A stretch of DNA of 64,000 nt from Gemmatimonadales bacterium (GCA_041613315.1 JBFJHJ010000001.1:74152-138151), one strand, 5' to 3'. Shown: positions 3,149-59,955, counted from the first letter of the stretch. The notes: generated from the sequence alone by a model not told the origin. Translations and numbers: made by a program.

Positions 3149-4837
3149 CTACCGCCCGGCCTTGGCGACCTCCGCGGCGCGCAGCTCGCGTCGCAGGACC
3201 TTGAGCACCGAGCTCTTGGGAAGCGCGTCCATGAACTCGATGGTCCGCGGCACCTTGTACGCCGCCAGCTCCTCGCGGCAGTGCGTGAGCAGCTCGTCGG
3301 CCGTCGCTCGCTGCCCCGGCTTCAGGACGACGAACGATTTCACCGTCTCGCCCCGCTTGGCGTCCGGCACCCCGATGGTCCCGGCCTCGAGGACCGCGGG
3401 GTGGCTCATCAGCACGCGATCGATCTCGTCCGGATACACATTGTAGCCCGAGCAGAGGATCATGTCCTTCTTGCGTCCCTCAATGAAGAAGAAGCCGTCC
3501 TCGTCCATCCGGGCGAGGTCGCCGGTGTAGAGCCAGCCGGCGCGGATCATCTCCGCCGTGGCCTCGGGCCGCTTCCAATACCCCTTCATCACCTGCGGGC
3601 CGTTGACGGCCAGTTCACCCACCTCGTTGGGGGGGAGGATCCGTGTCCCGTCTTCGATGTCGACGATGCGGGCGTCGGTGGAGGAGATCGGGACGCCGAT
3701 GCTCCCCGGTTTGCGCGTGCCGAGGACGGGGTTCGAGTGGGTGACGGGGGCCGTCTCGGTCAGGCCGAAGCCCTCGGTGATCTTCCCGCCCGTAATCGCC
3801 TCGAAGCGTTGCATCACCTCGACCGGCAGCGGCGCGGAGCCCGAATTGCAGACTTTGACGCTCGAGAGATCGGCTTTCGCCGCGTCGGGGTGCTGGTTGA
3901 TGGCGTTGTAGGTGGCGGGCACGGCCGGCGCCAGCGTCACGCGATGCTTCGCGATCGCGGACACGATGGCGGGAATGTCCCGCGGATTGGGTAACAGCAC
4001 CAGGGCCGCTCCCATCGCGATCCCGTTGTTCATCGCCACCGTGAGGCCGTACGAGTGGAACAGCGGCAGCATGGTCAACATGACCTCGCGGCCCGGTACG
4101 AGGCCGGGCAACCAGGCGGCGAGCTGCTGCACGTTCACCGACAAGTTGCGGTGGGTGAGCATCGCACCCTTGGAGACGCCGGTTGTTCCGCCGGTGTACA
4201 GCAGCGTTGCCACGTCGTCCAACTCGAGCGTCACGGCCGGCGGCTGCGGGGGCGTCTTCCGGACGAGCGTCCGGAAGTCGTGCACGTTGGCGTCGCGGGG
4301 GACGTTCGCGACGAGCGGCGGGGCCTGGCGCCGGAGCTTGAACGGCGCGAGCTGTTTGAGCGGGAATCGCATGTAGTCGGGAATCGTCGTCACGACGTAG
4401 TGCTTGACCGGCAGGCGGTCGCGGATCGCGCGGATCTTCTGCACGTAGAGGTAGTCAGTGATCACGGCCACCTCGCAGCCGCCGTCGTTCCACTGATGCT
4501 CGATTTCCCGTGGCGTGTACAGCGGATTGGTCGGCGAGGCGATCGCGTTGAGCGACAGCGCGGCGTAGTAGGCGATCGCAAACTGCGGAAGGTTTGGGGT
4601 CTGAATGGCGACCCGCGTCCCTCGTGCCACTCCGAGCGTCGTGAGAGCGGTCGCGAACCGATCGACTTCGTCGCCGAATTGCCGATAGGTGAGCCGGCCG
4701 TTGAAGAAGATCAATGCCGGTCGATCCGGGTACGTTCGCACGGCGCGTCGGAGGAAATCCACCACCGTCGCAGGCTCGAGGTCGAGCTCTGCGGGAACGC
4801 CGTCATCGTAGTGCCGATGCCAGGGCCTCTGCTCCAT
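3149..4837 (-). CDS. fadD: long-chain fatty acid--CoA ligase
   Basis: AMP-binding YTGGTTGVSKG, EGFGLTE, TGDLA, GRKKDMI; start MEQRPW preceded by GGAGG. Confidence 0.9.
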   Translation of the reverse strand: MEQRPWHRHYDDGVPAELDLEPATVVDFLRRAVRTYPDRPALIFFNGRLTYRQFGDEVDRFATALTTLGVARGTRVAIQTPNLPQFAIAYYAALSLNAIASPTNPLYTPREIEHQWNDGGCEVAVITDYLYVQKIRAIRDRLPVKHYVVTTIPDYMRFPLKQLAPFKLRRQAPPLVANVPRDANVHDFRTLVRKTPPQPPAVTLELDDVATLLYTGGTTGVSKGAMLTHRNLSVNVQQLAAWLPGLVPGREVMLTMLPLFHSYGLTVAMNNGIAMGAALVLLPNPRDIPAIVSAIAKHRVTLAPAVPATYNAINQHPDAAKADLSSVKVCNSGSAPLPVEVMQRFEAITGGKITEGFGLTETAPVTHSNPVLGTRKPGSIGVPISSTDARIVDIEDGTRILPPNEVGELAVNGPQVMKGYWKRPEATAEMIRAGWLYTGDLARMDEDGFFFIEGRKKDMILCSGYNVYPDEIDRVLMSHPAVLEAGTIGVPDAKRGETVKSFVVLKPGQRATADELLTHCREELAAYKVPRTIEFMDALPKSSVLKVLRRELRAAEVAKAGR

Positions 4838-4864
4838 GATGCCTCCCGAATCCCGTGCCGGGCA

Positions 4865-4894
4865 ATCATGCGCGACCGGGTTGCGGTGTGTCAA
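4865..4894 (-). promoter_or_regulatory. possible sigma70-type promoter for fadD
   Basis: TTGACA-N18-CATGAT on the minus strand, about 28 nt upstream of the ATG. Confidence 0.4.
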
Positions 4895-5045
4895 TCCACC
4901 GGATAGCGATACCTGACGAGCGCTCAGGCCGCTCGGACGGTACCGATTGAACTCCGCCCCCTGGACACTAATCTTCAAGGGCCGAGGCTCACACCGTCCG
5001 GCTCAACACATACACCACAAACTCACTCAGCACGAGGTCTTCGTG

Positions 5046-6374
5046 ATGCGCCACGTTTCGTGTCGACTCCTCGCATGGGTGACCGTCGCGACCGCCACCG
5101 CGGCCGGTCCCGCCGCCGCCCAGCAGCGGCTTTCCTCCGTGGAGCGCCAGATCGTCGCCTCCGTCGATGCCCAGACGCCGGCGGCGGTCGCGTTCCTCGA
5201 GGAAGTGGTGAACATCAACTCGGGGACCATGAACTTCGACGGGGTCCGGGCGGTCGGTCGAGCGTTTCAGGCGAAGCTCGACGCGCTGGGGTTCGCCACG
5301 CGGTGGATCCCGATGGATGAGGCGGGGCGCGCCGGCCATCTGTTCGCCGAGCGGCAGGATCGCGCGAGCGGCGGGAAGCGCCTGCTCCTGATTGGGCACT
5401 TGGACACCGTGTTCGAGCACGACAGTCCCTTCCAGCGGTTCGAGCGGCGGGACGGCCAAGCTCTGGGGCCGGGCACGGAGGACATGAAGGGCGGGAACGT
5501 CGTGATGCTGTTGGCGCTCCAGGCGCTCCACGCGGCGGGAGCGCTGGATGGGACCACGATGATCGTGGCGCTCACGGGCGACGAGGAAGACACCGGCGAC
5601 CCGCTCAGCGTGTCGCGGCGCGACCTCCTTGAGGCGGGACGCCGAAGCGATATCGCCTTGGGGTTCGAGGGTGGCATCGGCACGGGCACGGCAACGGTCG
5701 CGCGGCGCGGGTTCACCGGCTGGATCGTGCGGGTCGGTGGCACGCCTGCCCACTCCTCACAGGTGTTCCGTGAGGACGTGGGGAGCGGCGCCATCTACGA
5801 GGCGGCCCGTATCCTCCATGACTTCCACGAGGAGTTGCGGGGCGAGCGCTACTTGACCCTCAACCCGGGGACCATCCTGGGCGGGACGTCCGTGACGTTC
5901 GATGCCGTGCAGAGCAGGGGCACGACATTCGGCAAGACCAACGTCATCGCCGAGCACACGGTGGTGGCCGGCGACTTGCGGTTCATCTCGGAGGCACAGC
6001 GCGAGCGCGCCAAGGAGCGGATGCGAGCGATCGTCGCGCGACACCTCCCGCAGACGACGGCAACGATCACCTTCGAGGACTCCTACCCGGCGATGGCGCC
6101 GACGCCCGCCAACTACACCTTGCTCGAGCGGCTCGACCGCGTGAGCCGCGATCTCGGCTTCGGGGCCGTCGAGGCGGTGGATCCGGGCCGACGCGGCGCC
6201 GCCGACGTGTCCTTTGTAGCGCCGATCGTCGAAGCCTCGCTGGACGGTCTCGGGATCGTCGGAGACGGCGGCCACACCGTGGCAGAGCGCGCAGACCTCG
6301 CGACCCTCACTCTCATGGCGAAGCGGGCGGCCCTGCTGATCTATCGGCTGACGCGGGAGCGGCCGGGGACCTAG
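5046..6374 (+). CDS. exported M20/M25/M40 metallopeptidase (carboxypeptidase G2-like)
   Basis: Signal peptide (AAA|QQ); GHLDTV, GTEDMKGG, GDEE and C-terminal GGHT metal ligands. Confidence 0.85.
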   Translation: MRHVSCRLLAWVTVATATAAGPAAAQQRLSSVERQIVASVDAQTPAAVAFLEEVVNINSGTMNFDGVRAVGRAFQAKLDALGFATRWIPMDEAGRAGHLFAERQDRASGGKRLLLIGHLDTVFEHDSPFQRFERRDGQALGPGTEDMKGGNVVMLLALQALHAAGALDGTTMIVALTGDEEDTGDPLSVSRRDLLEAGRRSDIALGFEGGIGTGTATVARRGFTGWIVRVGGTPAHSSQVFREDVGSGAIYEAARILHDFHEELRGERYLTLNPGTILGGTSVTFDAVQSRGTTFGKTNVIAEHTVVAGDLRFISEAQRERAKERMRAIVARHLPQTTATITFEDSYPAMAPTPANYTLLERLDRVSRDLGFGAVEAVDPGRRGAADVSFVAPIVEASLDGLGIVGDGGHTVAERADLATLTLMAKRAALLIYRLTRERPGT

Positions 6375-50949: not shown

Positions 50950-53790
50950 ATGGCCGACGACCGCCTCATCGTACGCGGCGCACGCGTCCACAACCTCAAG
51001 GATATCTCCGTCGAGATTCCCCGGAACCGCTTGACGGTGATCACGGGGCTCTCGGGATCCGGGAAATCGTCGCTCGCGTTCGACACGATCTACGCCGAAG
51101 GCCAGCGGCGCTATGTCGAATCGCTGTCGGCCTACGCCCGGCAGTTCCTCGGGCTCATGGAGAAGCCCGATGTCGATGCCATCGAGGGGCTCTCGCCGGC
51201 CATCTCCATCGAGCAGAAGACGGCGGGGCACAACCCGCGCTCGACCGTCGGGACCGTGACCGAGGTCTACGACTACCTCCGCCTCCTCTGGGCCCGGGTC
51301 GGGATCCCCCACTGCCCCAACGACGGCTCGCCCATCGCCCGGCAGACCGCGACCCAGATGGTCGACATCGTCCTCGGCTGGCCGGCGGGAACGAAAATCG
51401 AGGTGTTGGCCCCGCTCGTGCGGGGACGCAAGGGCCAGTTCAAGGACCTCTTCGAGAGCGCGCGCCGGCAGGGGTTCGTTCGAGTGCGGGTGGACGGCGA
51501 GATTCACGACCTGGCGAGCCCGCCTAAGCTGAGCCGACGAGTCAACCATGACATCGCGCTGGTGGTCGACCGTCTCGTCGTGCGGGAGGCCGACCGTCGC
51601 CGCGTCACGGATTCGCTGGAGACCGCGCTCCGTGCCGCGGAAGGATTGGTCGAGATCGTACGCCACGAGCCCGAGCCGACGTCCGCCGTGTTCTCCGAAC
51701 GTTTCGCCTGCCCGGCGTGCGGGTACTCGCTTCCCGAGCTCGAGCCGCGACAGTTCTCGTTCAACTCGCCGTACGGTGCGTGTCCCGACTGCGGTGGCCT
51801 GGGGGTCCGGCAGGAAGTCAGCGCCGAGTTGGTGCTGGGGGATCCGCGGATCTCGATCCCCGAAGGCGTCGTCCTCCCGTGGGGAGAGCCCAAAGGGTAC
51901 CTCCGGCACATCGTGCTACCGACGCTCGCCACCGAGCTGGGCTTCGACCCGTCACAGCCCTGGGGTACGCTGCCGGCGCGCGTGCAGCGAGCGCTGCTCC
52001 ACGGGGTGCCCGACCGCACCTTCAGCTTCCGTGCGAGCAGCGGCCGGTCGGGGCAATACGACGTGCGGTGGGAAGGGATCCTCGCCAACGTCCAGCGGCG
52101 TTACGCGGACGCGGGATCGGACGCCATCCGCACGCAGCTCGCCGAGTACATGCAGGAGGTGGCGTGCGAGACCTGCGGCGGCCATCGGTTGCGGCGCGAC
52201 AGCCTGAGCGTGCTCGTGCACGAATGCTCCATCGGCGAGGTCGTGGACCTCTCGGTGCGGGAAGCGTTGGTCTTCTTCGAGTCCGTCCCGGTGGGCTCCA
52301 ACGGGCAGCGCGGGCTGGACCCGGAGATCGCGGGACCGATTCTCAAGGAAGTGACCGACCGCCTGCGCTTTCTGTGCGATGTGGGGCTGGAGTACCTGAC
52401 GTTGGGTCGGGCCGCCGCGTCGCTGTCGGGCGGCGAGGCGCAGCGGATCCGGCTCGCGACCCAGATCGGTAGCCGCCTCGTGGGCGTCCTATACGTGCTC
52501 GACGAGCCCTCGGTCGGGCTCCACCCGCGCGACAACGCGCGACTGCTCGCCACGCTCCGCGGCCTTCGGGACCTGGGCAACACCGTGATCGTGGTGGAGC
52601 ACGACGAAGCCACGATTCGGACGGCCGATCACGTCATCGACTTGGGGCCGCGCGCCGGCCGGGACGGCGGACACGTGGTGGCCCAGGGACCGGTGCAGGC
52701 GATCGTCGGCCACGAGCACTCGCTCACCGGCCGCTACCTGCGCGGTGATCTCCGGATTCCCGTTCCGTCGGCCCGGCGCCGGGTCGACGGAGATCGCATC
52801 ATCCGCGTCGTCGGGGCGCGCCAGCATAACCTCCAGCACCTCGACGTGCGGTTTCCGCTGGGCGCGTTTGTAGCCGTCACCGGCGTCTCCGGCTCCGGCA
52901 AGTCCACGCTCGTGACCGACATTCTCTACCGCGCCCTGGCCCGGCACTTCTATCGGGCGAAACTGCTCCCGGGCGCGCACGACCGGATCGAGGGGATCGA
53001 CGAGATCGACAAGGTGCTGGACATCGATCAGAGCCCCATCGGGCGCACGCCGCGCTCCAACCCCGCCACCTATACGGGCCTGTTCACGCCCATCCGCGAG
53101 CTCTACGCGCAGCTTCCGGAGTCGAAGCTGCGCGGGTACGGCCCGGGGCGCTTCTCGTTCAACGTGAAGGGCGGGCGGTGCGAGGCGTGCCAGGGCGACG
53201 GGCTCGTCAAGATCGAGATGCACTTCCTGCCCGATGTCTACGTGCCGTGCGACGTCTGCAAGGGGCGGCGGTACAATCGCGAGACGCTCGAGGTGCGCTA
53301 CAAGGGGAAGTCCATCGCGGACGTCCTCGAGATGACCGTGGCCGACGCGCTGGAGTTCTTCGACCAGCAGCCCCGCATCCGCAACCGGCTGGAACTCCTG
53401 AATGACGTCGGGTTGGGGTACATCCATCTGGGCCAGAGCGCGACGACGCTGTCGGGCGGCGAGGCCCAGCGCGTGAAGCTCGCCACCGAACTGTCGAAAC
53501 GGGACACGGGCCGCACGCTGTACATCCTGGACGAGCCCACGACGGGCCTGCACTTCGAGGACGTGCGGCTCCTGCTCACGGTGCTCCACCGCCTCGTGGA
53601 CAAGGGCAACACCGTGATCGTGATCGAGCACAACCTCGATGTGGTAAAGACGGCCGACTGGGTCGTGGATTTGGGTCCGGAGGGTGGTGCCGCCGGGGGC
53701 CGGGTGGTCGCGGAGGGCCCACCGGAGGCCCTCGTCTCGGTCACCGCGTCGTTCACCGGACGCTACCTGCGCCCGTTGCTGAGCGACTGA
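50950..53790 (+). CDS. uvrA: excinuclease ABC subunit A
   Basis: [28 protein letters not shown], two LSGGEAQR, zinc fingers, [11 protein letters not shown]. Confidence 0.98.
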
Positions 53791-53885: not shown

Positions 53886-54152
53886 ATGGATCCGCTCGAT
53901 CTTGGTCTAGGGATTGCCATGGTCGTCGGTTCGACCGGGCTGGTGGCCGTGGGCGTGATGTTTGCGCGGGCGGTCATGCGCAAGTGGGCGCGACCGGCTG
54001 CCGCGATCGGGTCGGCCGAGGTCCAGGAGTTACGCCGCGCCGTGAGCGAGCTGGCCGCGGACGTGGCGGAGCTCCACGAGCGCGTGGACTTCGCGGAGCG
54101 GATGCTCACGAGCCGGCAGGACCTCCCGCAACTCGAGGAACGCAGCTCATGA
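53886..54152 (+). CDS. array paralog 1: small TM plus coiled-coil protein (PspB-like architecture)
   Basis: 88 aa; AGGAGG SD; N-terminal TM; motif ELHERVDFAERML. Confidence 0.8.
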   Translation: MDPLDLGLGIAMVVGSTGLVAVGVMFARAVMRKWARPAAAIGSAEVQELRRAVSELAADVAELHERVDFAERMLTSRQDLPQLEERSS

Positions 54153-54418
54153 TCATGAGCCTGGGCCCTTTTCTCGTGCCCATCATGCTGTTTGTGGTGA
54201 TCGGCCTCGTGGCGGTGCTACGCGGCCCGATCGGCAAGGCCTTCGCCGACCGGATCGCGGGCCGGTCGACGTCGGGCACCGAATGGAGGGAGACCGAGGC
54301 GCTCCGCGGCGAGGTCGAGGAGCTCCGTCTGCGGATGACCGAGTTGGAAGAGCGGCTCGATTTCGCCGAGCGGATGCTGGCCCGAGCGCGCGAGCCGGAG
54401 CGGTTGCCGGAAGGCTGA
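54149..54418 (+). CDS. array paralog 2: small TM plus coiled-coil protein
   Basis: 89 aa; ATGA overlap with paralog 1; LRGPIGKAFADRI; ELEERLDFAERML. Confidence 0.8.
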   Translation: MIMSLGPFLVPIMLFVVIGLVAVLRGPIGKAFADRIAGRSTSGTEWRETEALRGEVEELRLRMTELEERLDFAERMLARAREPERLPEG

Positions 54419-54422
54419 GTCC

Positions 54423-54680
54423 ATGGAGATCCTGATCCCCATCGTGCTGTTCGTGAGCGTTGCGGCGACCGTGATTTTGCGGGGGCCCATCGGGAAGGCG
54501 ATGGGGGAACGCATCGCTGGGCGTGGTGGAGACGAGGCGGCCGGGCGCGGACAGATCGCAGCGCTCCAGGCGGCGATGGAGGACGTCCACCACCGCGTGG
54601 CGGAGCTGGAGGAGCGCGTGGACTTCACCGAGCGGGTGCTCGCGCGGGCGCGCGGGGCCGACCGGCTTCCCGAGCCCTAA
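54423..54680 (+). CDS. array paralog 3: small TM plus coiled-coil protein
   Basis: 85 aa; LRGPIGKAMGERI; ELEERVDFTERVL. Confidence 0.8.
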   Translation: MEILIPIVLFVSVAATVILRGPIGKAMGERIAGRGGDEAAGRGQIAALQAAMEDVHHRVAELEERVDFTERVLARARGADRLPEP

Positions 54681-54683
54681 ACC

Positions 54684-54983
54684 GTGCCCAGCTGGGTCTG
54701 GATCCAGAACGTGGTGCTCCCCATCCTGGGCATGGGGCTTGGCGGGCTGTTCATGTTCGGTGTGTACCGCACCGTCAACCGCTGGATCGATCGGCGACAC
54801 GAACGCGAGATGGCCGCGCGGGGCCAGTTCCCGACGCCGGCGCTGGAGCGGCTGCAGCAACGCGTCGAGGCGCTGGAGGACGTCGCGTACCGTGTGCAAG
54901 AGCTCGAGGAACGGGTAGACTTCGCCGAGCGCGTCCTGGCCCGCGGGCGCGGCGCCGAACGGCTCGAGCGTCCACCGAGCTAG
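54684..54983 (+). CDS. array paralog 4: small TM plus coiled-coil protein
   Basis: 99 aa; VVLPILGMGLGG...RTVNRWIDRR; ELEERVDFAERVL. Confidence 0.8.
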   Translation: MPSWVWIQNVVLPILGMGLGGLFMFGVYRTVNRWIDRRHEREMAARGQFPTPALERLQQRVEALEDVAYRVQELEERVDFAERVLARGRGAERLERPPS

Positions 54984-54997
54984 CGAGGGCACGGCGC

Positions 54998-55276
54998 ATG
55001 GACGCGGGCATCGTTGTGCCGATTGCTGGCATGGTCACGGGCATCATCCTGGGGCTCCCGCTGGTGCGGGTGGCGGTCCGCTACCTGGAGGAGCGCGTGT
55101 TGCGGAGTGGATCGGAGGGTGCGGCGGAGCGGCGCGGCATCGACGAGCTGCGGGCGCGCCTCGAAGTCGTGGAGACCATGCGGGACCGACTCACCGATGT
55201 CGAGGAACGGCTGGACTTCGCCGAGCGGATGCTCGCGAGAAGCCGCGACCGTACGGAACTTCCTCCGGCGAGGTAG
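54998..55276 (+). CDS. array paralog 5: small TM plus coiled-coil protein
   Basis: 92 aa; N-terminal TM; DVEERLDFAERML. Confidence 0.8.
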   Translation: MDAGIVVPIAGMVTGIILGLPLVRVAVRYLEERVLRSGSEGAAERRGIDELRARLEVVETMRDRLTDVEERLDFAERMLARSRDRTELPPAR

Positions 55277-55278
55277 CC

Positions 55279-55608
55279 GTGCAGACACCACCGCTGCCAC
55301 CCCTGCCGCCGACGCCGCCTGGTGTGCTGATCGAGGACGTCGTCCTGCCGATCCTGGGGATGGTGCTCGGGGGCTTCATCATTTGGCAGCTCTTCCGGAC
55401 GATCAACCGATGGCTGGACCGCCGCGCGGGCGGCGCGCCGGATGACGTGCGCGCGCTCCGGGCCGATGTCGAGCGGCTTCGGGCGCAGACCGACGGCGTG
55501 GAGGAGCTCCGGCACCGGGTGGGCGAGTTGGAGGAGCGCGTCGATTTCACCGAGCGAGTGCTCTCGCGGCAGCGGGAGCGCAATCCGCTGGGACCAGGAG
55601 GTGCGTAG
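55279..55608 (+). CDS. array paralog 6: small TM plus coiled-coil protein
   Basis: 109 aa; Pro-rich N-terminus; VVLPILGMVLGG...RTINRWLDRR; ELEERVDFTERVL. Confidence 0.8.
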   Translation: MQTPPLPPLPPTPPGVLIEDVVLPILGMVLGGFIIWQLFRTINRWLDRRAGGAPDDVRALRADVERLRAQTDGVEELRHRVGELEERVDFTERVLSRQRERNPLGPGGA

Positions 55609-55884
55609 GTGCCGTCGGACTGGGTGCTCGTGCTGATCATCGCGGGGACGTTCTCCGTGCTCTCCGGCGTGGCTTGGGGGGTGCTGGGAACCGTGAAGTG
55701 GTACCTCCGCGAGCGCGTGCGCCTGCAGGAGCGGCTGGCGCAGCTCGGGTCGGCGGAAGCCACCCCGCGGATTCAGGCGCTGGAGGATCGTGTGGCCGAG
55801 CTCGAGGAGCGGCTGGACTATGCGGAGCGTCTCCTCGCGCCCGCCCGGACGCACGGGCCGCTGGCACCCGGCCGAGAGGGATGA
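55609..55884 (+). CDS. array paralog 7: small TM plus coiled-coil protein
   Basis: 91 aa; AGGAGG inside the upstream gene end; ELEERLDYAERLL. Confidence 0.8.
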   Translation: MPSDWVLVLIIAGTFSVLSGVAWGVLGTVKWYLRERVRLQERLAQLGSAEATPRIQALEDRVAELEERLDYAERLLAPARTHGPLAPGREG

Positions 55885-55887
55885 GCG

Positions 55888-56172
55888 GTGGAAGGACCGG
55901 AACTCATCGTCATTCTCGCGACCATCGGCTCGGTCACCGCACTGGGGTTCGCGTTCTTCCGGGCTCTTGGGAGGTACTGGGAGCGGAAGGGCCAGACGGG
56001 CGGCTCCAGCCCGGAGGTGCGGGCGCTGGCCGGCCGGCTCGAGGGCGTCGAGCTCGAGCTGGCCGCGCTCCGGGACGCGGACACACGGCTGCAGGACCTC
56101 GAGGAGCGACTCGACTTCGCGGAGCGCGTGCTGGCCCGTCACAAGTCACCGCCGCTCCCGGGCGACGTGTAG
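55888..56172 (+). CDS. array paralog 8: small TM plus coiled-coil protein
   Basis: 94 aa; N-terminal TM; DLEERLDFAERVL. Confidence 0.8.
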   Translation: MEGPELIVILATIGSVTALGFAFFRALGRYWERKGQTGGSSPEVRALAGRLEGVELELAALRDADTRLQDLEERLDFAERVLARHKSPPLPGDV

Positions 56173-56174
56173 CG

Positions 56175-56468
56175 GTGGCAGACATTCTCGCGATCACGTT
56201 CATTTTCGGGGGAGGATCGCTGTTCCTTCTGGCGATTTCCCCGGTGGGCCGCGCCATCGCCGAGCGGATCCGGCGACGGGGCGACGGCAGCGCCCGGGAG
56301 GCCGTGGACAAGCTGCGGGAGTCGCAGGCGGCGATCGTTGAGGAGCTGGACGCGCTGCGCCAGGAGCTCACGGAGGTGCAGGAGCGGCTCGACTTCACCG
56401 AGCGGCTCTTGGTGCGACACCGCGAGATCGGCGAGCTGCCCTCGAAGGCGGGAGACTCGGCACCGTAA
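56175..56468 (+). CDS. array paralog 9: small TM plus coiled-coil protein
   Basis: 97 aa from GTG; ISPVGRAIAERI; EVQERLDFTERLL. Confidence 0.8.
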   Translation: MADILAITFIFGGGSLFLLAISPVGRAIAERIRRRGDGSAREAVDKLRESQAAIVEELDALRQELTEVQERLDFTERLLVRHREIGELPSKAGDSAP

Positions 56469-56602
56469 CGCGCGTTCCCCGGTGAAACGCTCGGCCCGCG
56501 TTCGCCGTAGGGTTGGGTGCCCCCGCCGGGCCGCCACCGGCTCGGCGGTCGAAGTGGCGCAGGTGCCGACGACCCTTCATCTTATCGTCAGGAGGGCAAG
56601 TG

Positions 56603-56881
56603 ATGGGTGGACTGTTCACGGCGCTCGCGCTCGTCATCGTGGCCTATTGGTTCCTCCGCTCACCGCTGTGCGGAGCGATCTGCGACTCCATCCGGGCGCA
56701 GGCGGGCGGCGGGGCGGATCCCCGCGCCTTGGACCGGCTCGAGGAGACGGTGGAGCGGTTGGCGGACGAGCTGAGCGGGCTGCGGGCGGACGTCGTCGAG
56801 CTGGCCGACCGGGTGGACTTCTCGGAACGGATGCTGGTCGAACTCCGGGAGCGCCACGCGCTCCCGGCGCATCGGGCGTGA
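56603..56881 (+). CDS. array paralog 10: small TM plus coiled-coil protein
   Basis: 92 aa; AGGAGG SD; LRSPLCGAICDSI; ELADRVDFSERML. Confidence 0.78.
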   Translation: MGGLFTALALVIVAYWFLRSPLCGAICDSIRAQAGGGADPRALDRLEETVERLADELSGLRADVVELADRVDFSERMLVELRERHALPAHRA

Positions 56882-56963
56882 GTGGTGGCCTTTATTTGCA
56901 TCATGGTAGCGCGCGGGCCGGTGGGAGCGGCTGGCGCGGCGTACCGGAAGGGGTAACACCGAG

Positions 56964-57731
56964 ATGGGCATCTTTCAGCGTCTCGCCACGGTGATCAAAG
57001 CACAGATCAACGCCCTGATCGGGCGGGCGGAGGACCCGGCCAAGGTCCTCGATCAGCTGCTCATCGACATGCGGGGCCAGTTGGCGAAGACCAAGCAGGA
57101 GGTCGCCTCGGCCATCGCGGACGAGAAGAAGCTCCAGGCGCAGGTCGAGAAAGAGAAGAAGTCGGCCGAGGAGTGGGAGCGCCGGGCGATGCTCGCCGTC
57201 CAGGAGAACCGGGACGACCTGGCGAAGCAGGCGCTGGTGCGACACAACGAACACCTTCAGCACGCCCAGCAGCTCCACGAGACGTGGATCCGTCACAAAG
57301 GGGACGTGGAGGCGCTCAAGAACTCGCTCCGGGAGCTGAACGATAAGATCGAAGATGCGAAGCGCAAGAAGAACCTCCTCGTCGCCCGGCAGCGGCGCGC
57401 CGAGGCCCAGAGCCGGATCCAGGAAACGATGTCCTCGATGTCGAACCAGAGCGCGTTCGAGAGCTTCCGTCGGATGGAGGAGCGGATCGAGGATATGGAG
57501 CGGCAGGCGCTGGCGGCGGCCGAGCTGGCCGGCGAGTTGGAGGGCGATACGCTCGACCGGCAGTTCGAGCAGCTGGAGTACCGGGGCAACGCCGAGCAAC
57601 AGCTCCTGGCGCTCAAGGAGAAGATGGGCATGCTCCCCGCGGGCGAGGCGCCCGAGCGCCGGCAGCTGGCGGGCGGCGACACCGAAGACGTAGCGGAAGC
57701 GGAGGTCGTGGAAGAAGAAGACAAGGACTGA
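56964..57731 (+). CDS. pspA: PspA/IM30 family protein (bacterial ESCRT-III-like)
   Basis: MGIFQRL..VIKA.IN.LI..AEDP.K.L.Q...DM amphipathic N-terminus, W..RA.LA....DDLA..AL, F.RMEE.I...E; all coiled-coil. Confidence 0.93.
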   Translation: MGIFQRLATVIKAQINALIGRAEDPAKVLDQLLIDMRGQLAKTKQEVASAIADEKKLQAQVEKEKKSAEEWERRAMLAVQENRDDLAKQALVRHNEHLQHAQQLHETWIRHKGDVEALKNSLRELNDKIEDAKRKKNLLVARQRRAEAQSRIQETMSSMSNQSAFESFRRMEERIEDMERQALAAAELAGELEGDTLDRQFEQLEYRGNAEQQLLALKEKMGMLPAGEAPERRQLAGGDTEDVAEAEVVEEEDKD

Positions 57732-57754
57732 GCCCCGCTCGGCAGCAGCGGCGG

Positions 57755-57788
57755 AAGGCCCCCCGGCACGAGCTGTGGGGGCCTTTTT
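57755..57788 (+). terminator. intrinsic terminator after pspA
   Basis: Stem AAGGCCCCC / GGGGGCCTT followed by TTT, about 24 nt after the pspA stop. Confidence 0.75.
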
Positions 57789-58303: not shown

Positions 58304-59035
58304 ATGGGCGCGGGCCCGCTCGCCTTTCGCGGCGAGGTCGTGCTGGGCATGCTCTTGGTGACGCGGCACCGAGCCGTCCGCCTGGCCGGGGTGCTGGCCG
58401 TGGTGGTCGTCGGGCTCGCCCTCCTGGCAGGTGACGACGGTGGCGCGGTGGCGCGGCGGCAGGCCGTGTTCGCGGCGGGCGGCTCGCTGGCGGCCGTCGC
58501 CGCCTCCCGGTTGCTCGCGCCCGGAGCGGCGCTCGCGGCGGGCCGACAGACCGGCGGTCCGTGGTGGCGGGCGCCGGTGGGCCGCCTCACGGGAGCGTGG
58601 CTCGTGGTCGCGCCGCCCGTCGCTGCGGCCGCGGTCTTATTGGTGGGGAGCGTCGCGGGTTCGTGGGCCGCCGGGCGCACCGCGGCTGTGGCCGCACTCC
58701 ACGTGGGCGCGGTGGGGGCGCTCGTGCTGGCCGTGGCACCCCTCGCCGGTGCCAGCGCCGCCGCCGCGGTCGGCTTGGCCGTCGCGTGGCTCGGGGGAGT
58801 CCCCCCGTCTGTGATGGGCGCCGCCCTCGACGCGTGGCCCTATCTGCGGCGCCCGGTCGTGTTGGCATGGAATACGCTGCCGCTCGATTGGCGCGCCGGC
58901 CGCTGGCTCAGGGCCAGTACGGTTGAAGACCTCGCCGTGCTCGCCGGCTGGATCGCGCTGGGCTGCATCGTGGCCGCGTGGGCCGCCGCCCGAGCCTACC
59001 GTCGCCCCGACCCCCCGAACGGCAGTGAGCCATGA
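58304..59035 (+). CDS. multi-TM membrane protein, possible ABC-2-type permease
   Basis: Very hydrophobic, about 6 TM; ATGA overlap with the ABC ATPase. Confidence 0.6.
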   Translation: MGAGPLAFRGEVVLGMLLVTRHRAVRLAGVLAVVVVGLALLAGDDGGAVARRQAVFAAGGSLAAVAASRLLAPGAALAAGRQTGGPWWRAPVGRLTGAWLVVAPPVAAAAVLLVGSVAGSWAAGRTAAVAALHVGAVGALVLAVAPLAGASAAAAVGLAVAWLGGVPPSVMGAALDAWPYLRRPVVLAWNTLPLDWRAGRWLRASTVEDLAVLAGWIALGCIVAAWAAARAYRRPDPPNGSEP

Positions 59036-59955
59036 GCCTGGTCGTGGCTGAAGCGATCACCAAGGTCTTCGGCGCTCGCCGGCGGCGCCGAGCCGTGGTG
59101 GACGCCTGCACGTTTCGTCTGGAGCCCGGTGAAATCATGGGGATCGTGGGGCCGAACGGGGCGGGCAAGACGACGCTGCTTCGGCTCGTGGCCGGTGAAC
59201 TGCCGCTGACGACGGGAACGCTCGCGGTGGCAGGCCACCGCGCGGGCACCCGACGCGCGCGGCGCGCCGTGGGCTACGCCGCCGATCCGCCCATTGCCCC
59301 ACCGGAACTCACGGGCACCGAGTGGCTGGCCTACCTGGCGAGCCAGCGAGCGAGGTCCTCGGGGGAGCGCGCCCGGTTGGTCCGCTCGGCGGTCGAGGTC
59401 GGCGAGACGGCGTCCTTCACGGCCCGGCGCATTGCCACGTACTCACGTGGCATGGCGCAACGCCTGGGGCTCGCCGCCGCGTGCGTGCGCAACCCCGCCG
59501 TGCTCGTGTTGGACGAGGTCCTAAGCGGCGTGGATCCGCTGGTCCATCGCCGACTGCGGCAGCAGATCGCCAGCCATGCCCGTGCCGGCGTGGGGGTGCT
59601 GATCGCGTCCCACGACCTGGCCGCGATCGAGCGATTGGCGACGCGCGTCGTGCTCCTGTGGGATGGCCGCATCGTGGCGGACGTGCGTGCGGCCGCCCTG
59701 CTCGCGGAGCGGGTGGTCGAGCTGTCCCTCGCCGGCTCGGCGCTGGCGGACGCCGAACGCTTCGTCGCCCGCTACCCCGGCGCCACGCGCACCGGGCAAG
59801 GCGTGGCCGTTCCCCTCACCGGGGGGCTCAGTGCCGAGGCGGTCCTGGCCGCGTGCCGGGACGCGCGCCTCGCGGTGGCGGCCTCCCGCGTGCGGTATCG
59901 AGCGCTCGAAGACCTGCTGCTGGCGGCAGCCCGGGAGCGCGGGGAGCCGACGTGA
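59032..59955 (+). CDS. ABC transporter ATP-binding protein (exporter type)
   Basis: GPNGAGKTT, YSRGMAQRL, VLDEVLSGVDP, ASHDL, C-terminal LEDL. Confidence 0.88.
   Translation: MSLVVAEAITKVFGARRRRRAVVDACTFRLEPGEIMGIVGPNGAGKTTLLRLVAGELPLTTGTLAVAGHRAGTRRARRAVGYAADPPIAPPELTGTEWLAYLASQRARSSGERARLVRSAVEVGETASFTARRIATYSRGMAQRLGLAAACVRNPAVLVLDEVLSGVDPLVHRRLRQQIASHARAGVGVLIASHDLAAIERLATRVVLLWDGRIVADVRAAALLAERVVELSLAGSALADAERFVARYPGATRTGQGVAVPLTGGLSAEAVLAACRDARLAVAASRVRYRALEDLLLAAARERGEPT

Follow-up and report, generated by a model that had tools for sequence, protein, structure and literature searches.

Why should ten small, related genes for membrane proteins stand directly in front of the only pspA gene found in a bacterial genome? 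The question is raised by a 64,000-nucleotide stretch of DNA (GCA_041613315.1 JBFJHJ010000001.1:74152-138151, hereafter the window) from the genome of a marine Gemmatimonadales bacterium (2.63 Mb, 83% complete). PspA/IM30/Vipp1 proteins are the bacterial ESCRT-III, and their targeting to the membrane is understood in few model species (PspBC, LiaI and PspM). In the window, ten genes (G1 to G10) lie on the plus strand between uvrA and pspA, and each encodes a protein of 85-109 amino acids (aa) with one predicted transmembrane (TM) helix followed by a coiled-coil-like helix. A first-pass annotation, made from the sequence of the window, had read this array as a candidate for an expanded PspB-like adaptor system for PspA. 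We consider it about evenly balanced that the array proteins are PspB-like membrane anchors or sensors, which would oligomerise and recruit or regulate PspA. Oligomerisation, binding to PspA and a role in sensing are what we infer from the gene order, topology signals and conservation described below.

All ten genes were found to be intact, same-strand open reading frames (ORFs) with one N-terminal hydrophobic helix each, within the region and the length range that had been reported, and every one of the ten quoted C-terminal motifs was correct. The gaps from G1 to G10 are, in order, -4, 4, 3, 14, 2, 0, 3, 2 and 134 nucleotides (nt), and pspA follows 82 nt after G10; the reported spacing of -4 to 14 nt for G1-G9 was thus recovered. 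For example, the ATG of G2 overlaps the stop codon of G1 (ATGA). Shine-Dalgarno-like sites, which had been noted inside several upstream gene ends, were seen in the 20-nt upstream strings as AGGAGG or GAGG-like sequences before seven to eight of the ten starts, and G10 has an AGGAGG site in addition to the 134-nt gap upstream. G2, G9 and G10 are enclosed in longer mechanical ORFs, as had also been stated.

Pairwise identity among the ten aligned proteins is 23-30%, and DNA identity between the copies is 60-78% over the motif-coding stretch, which rules out a recent duplication or an assembly artefact as the origin of the array. Because the copies have diverged and the same arrangement was observed in dozens of other genomes, the array is neither chance nor artefact, and the first-pass annotation was right to consider an artefact unlikely. 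The stretch is present in five marine DNA metagenome runs from two studies, four of which are possibly its source; no RNA run containing it was found.

Each of the ten proteins contains one strongly hydrophobic segment of 19 aa with a mean Kyte-Doolittle value of 1.8-2.7. No lysine or arginine precedes this segment in any of the ten and two to five of these residues are located in the next 15 positions; therefore the few-residue N-terminus is predicted to be periplasmic and the remainder cytoplasmic, which gives all ten a predicted N-out/C-in topology with a single TM helix. An AlphaFold2 model of G9, built from a 41-row alignment, has a mean predicted local distance difference test (pLDDT) score of 87 and consists of helices at residues 2-21 (TM), 23-36 (juxtamembrane) and 39-86. 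Foldseek found no match to the G9 model in the PDB, and no PspB structure is available for comparison. When the PDB was searched with profiles of the family and of PspB, chance coiled-coil matches only were returned (E 0.045 or worse).

The strongest conservation in the family is located in the cytoplasmic helix. All ten C-termini follow the pattern ExxERxDFxERxL, with no variation at R, D, E, R and L; G7, the most divergent member, has DY in place of DF and a long branch in the tree (length 1.57). Among 307 distinct members, which were picked with the family profile hidden Markov model (HMM) and hence in a way that favours the motif, the consensus reads E (88%), L (78%), x, E (99%), R (99%), L/V, D (94%), F (100%), A/T, E (100%), R (100%), L/M/V and L (95%), while the TM segment and the linker vary. 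The first-pass annotation had proposed a variable membrane part joined to a constant cytoplasmic motif, and this picture holds, with F, E and R at 99-100% and the same module found in the TM2 protein described below. In the heptad register read from the conservation table (core positions 65, 68, 72, 75 and 79), the invariant D, F, E and R occupy positions b, c, e and f. The motif would therefore present a largely exposed charged face with one aromatic residue, and because its conserved residues fall mostly at the outward positions b, c and f it would suit a docking surface.

The source genome holds, besides the ten copies, an eleventh partial match, which is a TM2-domain protein. This protein of 144 aa (G000 contig C5:102427-102858; L023:1928-2362) joins a TM2 domain (PF05154, E 4.8e-18) to a C-terminal ELNERVDFVERLL helix. 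Of 24 genomes of the window's own family (f1), 21 carry this gene, conserved and in a single copy; the counts for this fusion, for the linkage to pspA in f1 and f3 and for PspC include the unpublished genome G014, on which none of the conclusions rests. As judged from the sequences, the C-terminal module is portable, with the same helix carried on a TM2 anchor. Five longer proteins that looked like further fused forms were rejected, as they are run-together calls of adjacent array genes and not domain fusions. Since the same face is kept on diverging paralogues and on the TM2 anchor, it would serve one common binding partner or one assembly rule, and PspA is the obvious candidate for the partner because of the operon linkage. 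For PspA (41-row alignment) with residues 22-97 of G9, a complex prediction run without controls gave scores of 0.01 and 0.02, where the mark is 0.32; it favours neither side of the question of binding.

The first check that the first-pass annotation had proposed was whether relatives show the linkage to pspA, and the arrays bear it out. In 28 of the 32 genomes of two array-bearing families (f1 and f3), pspA was observed directly 3' of the array on the same strand. The linked genomes are 22 of 24 in f1, where the other two (G004 and G015) have the array and pspA at contig ends, and six of eight in f3. Most genomes have one strong PF04012 match, which is the array-linked pspA. A second sample consisted of 80 named loci from metagenome-assembled genomes, selected by similarity to G1, taken with 4-kb flanks and analysed with the family HMM. 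Sixty-three of these are arrays of 2-13 genes (median 5), and in 54 of these arrays a same-strand pspA follows within 1.5 kb. Seven of the remaining nine arrays end within 500 nt of the locus end, so that two small arrays (L100 and L102) are truly without pspA.

Not all members of the family are found beside pspA. The other 17 of the 80 loci are singletons, none of which has pspA nearby; the TM2 protein is unlinked to pspA; and in four genomes of families f2, f6 and f7 the members detected by the profile are located far from pspA. These members weigh against a role that is always exercised through PspA. They would fit a rival explanation, in which the paralogues build a scaffold of their own, a hetero-oligomeric lattice of coiled coils beneath the inner membrane, which would stabilise the membrane directly and be co-regulated with PspA without binding it. 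The small A or T at a core position of the motif helix and the conserved charged e/g flanks would suit such packing between paralogue helices. We regard this explanation as rather unlikely, as the expanded arrays adjoin pspA in all cases except L100 and L102. Singletons were also examined for a partner of their own, and no common one was found by Pfam on 30 of the 57 ORFs beside the 17 singletons. A GerE/LuxR-type regulator and a DUF4199 membrane protein, located beside two singletons (L050:2691-3938 and L041:4295-5411), were the only recurrent neighbours.

The order of genes within the arrays appears to be old. We built a quick maximum-likelihood tree with IQ-TREE from 84 members of 14 arrays (94 columns), with support from the SH-like approximate likelihood ratio test (SH-aLRT), in which 28 of 75 inner branches are unresolved. 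Members were grouped in this tree by array position and not by genome. For example, G1 clusters with the first genes of nine other arrays (SH-aLRT 96) and represents a first-in-array orthologue group, G10 clusters with the last genes of arrays L034, L018 and L056 (SH-aLRT 95), and G9 is the orthologue of the last gene before pspA in many relatives. G4, G5, G6 and G8 form one clade characterized by an 'RWxDRR' juxtamembrane helix (SH-aLRT 97), and G2 and G3 group together as the 'GPIGKA' type. Grouping by position across genomes indicates that the duplications are old and that the order was kept, with some lineage-specific extra copies; it also indicates that the paralogues were retained as non-redundant genes, as expected of subunits or of distinct sensors. 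Position-specific orthologue groups would fit a complex of fixed stoichiometry as well, including a lattice that does not involve PspA. A bolder form of the PspA-directed reading, which we consider unlikely, is that the paralogues are obligate subunits of one hetero-oligomeric membrane platform, built in gene order, which would nucleate PspA polymerisation and direct it in space while each TM helix samples a different property of the bilayer.

The distance between the last array member and pspA was found to be bimodal, with values of about 10-200 nt (direct abutment, as in the window) or about 410-530 nt, where an extra gene is accommodated. In L071 the extra gene (4781-5176), located between the array and pspA, is CesT_Tir_1 (PF22550, E 9.8e-26). 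When the ORFs were read in 12 genomes of f2, f5, f6 and f7 (loci L108-L119), a CesT/Tir-like ORF was observed directly before pspA in ten of them. In the window, no CesT/Tir gene is present in the 82-nt gap between G10 and pspA, and a search of the 83%-complete source genome gave no CesT/Tir match, although the control search gave none either. A CesT/Tir-PspA dyad has been described (PMC11237479). In many Gemmatimonadota, CesT_Tir_1 lies directly before pspA and the array is located upstream of this dyad, whereas the window and its nearest relatives lack a CesT/Tir gene and their array abuts pspA.

Among these 12 genomes, a single divergent TM-coiled-coil gene before the CesT/Tir-pspA pair was found in f5 and f6 only (family-HMM E 4e-6 and 7e-4). 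The genes at L118:2332-2592 (f6) and L119:2286-2579 (f5) carry the degenerate motifs ENHEFLTSLLE and EEQAFLTQLLS, respectively, and may be near the ancestral single-copy state. From these arrangements, the ancestral order was likely uvrA, one small TM gene, a cesT-like gene and pspA, after which the TM gene likely multiplied in f1 and f3, and the branch of the window likely lost the cesT-like gene. The linkage of the paralogues to pspA persists across at least two families, even where the intervening CesT/Tir gene was lost. This persistence suggests a functional coupling closer than co-regulation and argues against paralogues that support the membrane independently of PspA.

Are the array proteins related to PspB? 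The two resemble each other in architecture: PspB also has about 75-100 aa, one N-terminal TM helix and a cytoplasmic C-terminal helix, its most conserved motif is located in that helix (eRIxxLExILD in PspB, ERxDFxERxL here), and its gene is in the same operon as pspA. For sequence comparison we used 122 PspB representatives drawn from 365 PspBs found in a search of 1.84 billion proteins. With small alignments, hhalign gave a probability of 61%; with 130 family sequences against the 122 PspBs, the probability rose to 86.7% (E 4.4e-6, score 35.4) and RVxELEERLD was aligned with RIxxLExILD. The reversed PspB alignment, used as a control, scored 22.4 with a probability of 16.5%, and the maximum score of 60 column shuffles was 15.2. 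Furthermore, the PspB HMM reached at least 10 bits with 99 of the 307 members (top 20.2) vs 14 of 307 reversed and none of 307 shuffled sequences, and the family HMM did so with 51 of the 122 PspBs vs none of 122 reversed ones. The nearest named cluster in the ESM-Atlas is PspB (0.78), which serves as a lead only.

Several observations weigh against a PspB-like identity. The curated models match the array proteins only weakly, with TIGR02976 finding three of the ten (best 14 bits vs a cut-off of 51.7) and PF06667 finding one of ten (best 11.7 bits vs a cut-off of 25.6), and a six-frame PF06667 search of the source genome did not hit the array. The hhalign match spans 18 coiled-coil columns only, the reversed control scores are fairly high, and a looser or global alignment shifts the register (ERLDFAERLL against ERIxxLExIL), so that two registers are about equal. 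Classical PspB works with PspC and PspF. PspC (PF04024) had no match in the 83%-complete source genome and was found in six of 41 relatives, never adjacent to pspA; neither a PspC partner nor control by PspF and sigma-54 was found for the array genes, unlike the PspB system. The array genes are also located upstream of pspA, whereas pspB of E. coli is downstream. The proposal of a PspB-like protein is thus upheld by the architecture and by a sequence signal that is weak but above the controls, and it fails at the curated PspB thresholds, which are reached by no member. On the sequence comparisons, we consider the array proteins to be probable, though unproven, distant homologues of PspB; the family is not to be filed as PspB under the current models.

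The search for control elements bears on a further explanation, in which the paralogues are regulators: by sequestering either PspA or a transcription factor at the membrane, they would govern psp expression instead of anchoring the effector. The weak PspB similarity would fit such a role, as would the analogy with the dual regulatory role of PspB/PspC that is presented in PMC9239133. However, no transcription factor gene was found in or beside the operon within the window, and the stretch from 53.6 to 57 kb gave no sigma-54 -24/-12 match. Furthermore, no sigma-54 activator is present on the source contig, since all eight matches in the genome are located on other contigs. These two negatives count against PspB-like wiring as well as against a regulatory switch. 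Ten to nineteen copies also seem excessive for a simple switch, and we consider a purely regulatory role to be quite improbable. We did notice a sequence resembling a sigma-54 -24/-12 element, TGGTGGCCTTTATTTGCA at 56884-56900 (64-80 nt before the pspA start); its spacing is GG-N9-GC and not GG-N10-GC, and it was unreported by the pattern search.

The family to which the array proteins belong is large. At least 3423 protein clusters were matched by the profile of the ten at E 0.001 or better, from 7999 candidates scored. Names among the listed clusters are 'hypothetical' or evidently spurious automatic labels, and a Pfam domain was found in none of 120 clusters among those listed. Likewise, Pfam and NCBIfam gave a significant match for none of the ten proteins. 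When one genome of each prokaryotic species was scanned, 386 relatives were confirmed; among the best 80 of these 386, 78 are titled Gemmatimonadota, Gemmatimonadales or Gemmatimonadetes, one 'bacterium HR33' and one 'Miltoncostaeaceae'. The last of these (L046, a 1.52-Mb contig) carries a seven-gene array followed by pspA, and its UvrA is 75.8% identical to that of the window. The contig resembles Gemmatimonadales, and its taxonomic label may be wrong or the region may have been transferred.

We also surveyed 150 other Gemmatimonadota genomes of at least 90% completeness at E 1e-5, including the unpublished G078, which affects none of the conclusions. All 74 genomes of f1 have matches (4-19 each), whereas in f2 six of 31 genomes have one weak match each, in f7 eight of 16 genomes have one or two matches, and in f10-f12 none of 15 genomes was matched. 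The first-pass annotation had known of no described ten-member array of this kind; such an array is not exceptional within this lineage, where arrays range from 2 to 13 genes with up to 19 copies per genome.

This distribution, together with the database searches, also bears on whether the paralogues could be holin-like or toxin-like membrane-perturbing peptides whose damage is countered by PspA. The features that would suggest this are limited to small size, a single TM helix and a location beside a membrane-repair gene, and we hold it to be very improbable. The cytoplasmic helix, and not the TM segment, is the most conserved part; the orthologue groups are old and have remained stable, and the genes occur in every one of the 74 f1 genomes. 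In addition, PADLOC matched none of the ten proteins, and PHROGs gave only three weak matches (E 0.001-0.009), which are unrelated and non-recurrent.

As PspB-like anchors or sensors of PspA, the array proteins would each consist of a short periplasmic N-terminus, one TM helix, a basic amphipathic juxtamembrane helix on the cytoplasmic side, a flexible linker and, last, a helix some 48 residues long ending in ELxERxDFxERxL. The state of the bilayer would be reported by the TM and juxtamembrane parts, which differ between the paralogues. The C-terminal helix, which is constant, would bring the paralogues together as homo- or hetero-oligomers and present a fixed charged surface with an exposed Phe. 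Through this surface PspA would be drawn to the membrane, or its polymerisation controlled, and the array would replace PspB/PspC in this lineage.

The pspA gene itself is assigned with little difficulty. Its product gives a full-length match to PF04012 (E 8.9e-47, 160 bits vs a cut-off of 33.9, profile positions 1-216 of 220) and a match to TIGR02977 (E 1.1e-41) that is under the cut-off. It is the one match in the source genome, where no second copy was found. A terminator had been said to close the unit, and a GC-rich hairpin followed by UUUUU is indeed located after pspA (Table 1); a simple pattern scan did not report this hairpin, probably because its loop is longer than the 8-nt limit of the scan. 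The region could be either a single operon or two nested units, G1-G9 and G10-pspA. The only long gap within the array (56469-56602, before G10) is a possible site for an internal promoter that would serve a G10-pspA unit; the scans detected neither a consensus promoter nor a terminator there, and Rfam gave no match. A promoter scan did not find a sigma-70 consensus, and no RNA family of Rfam was found between 53.0 and 58.5 kb.

Table 1. Features of the array locus, with positions counted from the first nucleotide of the window
Feature	Position	Strand	Description
uvrA	50950..53790	+	conserved upstream neighbour; context, not a member of the system
G1	53886..54152	+	88 aa; motif ELHERVDFAERML; family profile E 7.8e-22
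G2	54149..54418	+	89 aa; 'GPIGKA' juxtamembrane type; profile E 2.3e-28
G3	54423..54680	+	85 aa; 'GPIGKA' type; profile E 2.3e-29
G4	54684..54983	+	99 aa; 'RxxNRWxDRR' juxtamembrane type; profile E 1.6e-31
G5	54998..55276	+	92 aa; major clade shared with G4, G6 and G8; profile E 9.8e-32
G6	55279..55608	+	109 aa; N-terminal extension, Pro-rich; 'RxxNRWxDRR' type; profile E 6.5e-33
G7	55609..55884	+	91 aa; profile E 1.1e-18
G8	55888..56172	+	94 aa; profile E 5.0e-24
G9	56175..56468	+	97 aa; GTG start; profile E 2.3e-26
G10	56603..56881	+	92 aa; motif ELADRVDFSERML; profile E 3.1e-22
pspA	56964..57731	+	255 aa; PspA/IM30 (ESCRT-III-like)
probable intrinsic terminator	57757..57788 (approx.)	+	GC-rich hairpin then UUUUU; -39.5 kcal/mol, z -1.8

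The genes flanking the operon differ in their conservation. Of the 80 related loci, 32 have a full-length or partial UvrA upstream of the array, with an identity above 70% in 28 of the 32. On the 3' side of pspA (58304-59955), an Ala-rich ORF of 243 aa that matches nothing in Pfam overlaps the ORF of an ABC-transporter ATPase (PF00005, E 4.9e-23). Relatives do not share these downstream genes, as the ATPase was found in three of the 80 loci and the 243-aa ORF in none.

Among known systems, LiaI of Bacillus subtilis and PspM/Rv2743c of M. tuberculosis are small, lineage-specific membrane proteins that are thought to tether the PspA homologue (PMC11237479). The array proteins are alike in concept, as all are small proteins integral to the membrane whose genes accompany that of a PspA homologue. 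LiaI and PspM differ in being multi-TM proteins with one copy per operon, and they have no sequence relationship to the array proteins, which gave no significant Pfam or NCBIfam match. The array also differs from PspB in its 2-13 genes, its up to 19 copies per genome, its position-specific subfamilies and its near restriction to Gemmatimonadota; PspB duplicates within one operon are mentioned in PMC11237479.

Outside bacteria, archaeal CdvA and eukaryotic ESCRT-II/Vps20 are membrane-bound nucleators of ESCRT-III polymers. They offer a possible functional analogy, namely a membrane factor that sites an ESCRT-III-type polymer, and no homology.

In the published record, a TM-coiled-coil array is not among the PspA partners that Ravi et al. 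give in the text that deals with the CesT/Tir-PspA dyad. The main text of two Psp surveys (PMC9239133 and PMC11237479) does not mention Gemmatimonadota, and their supplements or web application might list such genes. A full-text literature search for 'PspA' with 'Gemmatimonad' returned nothing on the topic as judged by title or abstract, and a broader search returned general Gemmatimonadota papers only, in which PspA does not occur. The array differs from the known small PspB-like partners of PspA in its massive, ordered amplification together with a very strongly conserved 13-residue motif.

In a widespread and largely uncultured lineage, the array accompanies the only PspA as a conserved partner in the operon, and its members have long been kept distinct. 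It belongs to a large family without a Pfam or NCBIfam model, which merits an entry in the profile databases and a place in Psp surveys. If kinship with PspB is true, it extends the known range of PspB and shows which part of the cytoplasmic helix forms the conserved core. If the paralogues bind PspA, they would be a natural series of anchors with one constant docking helix of 13 residues, a length that suits peptide-binding, mutagenesis and structural studies of how ESCRT-III-like polymers are recruited. Should the paralogues be obligate subunits of one platform, a single ESCRT-III-like effector could be directed by many inputs, and the array would be a bacterial counterpart of the machinery that nucleates ESCRT-III.

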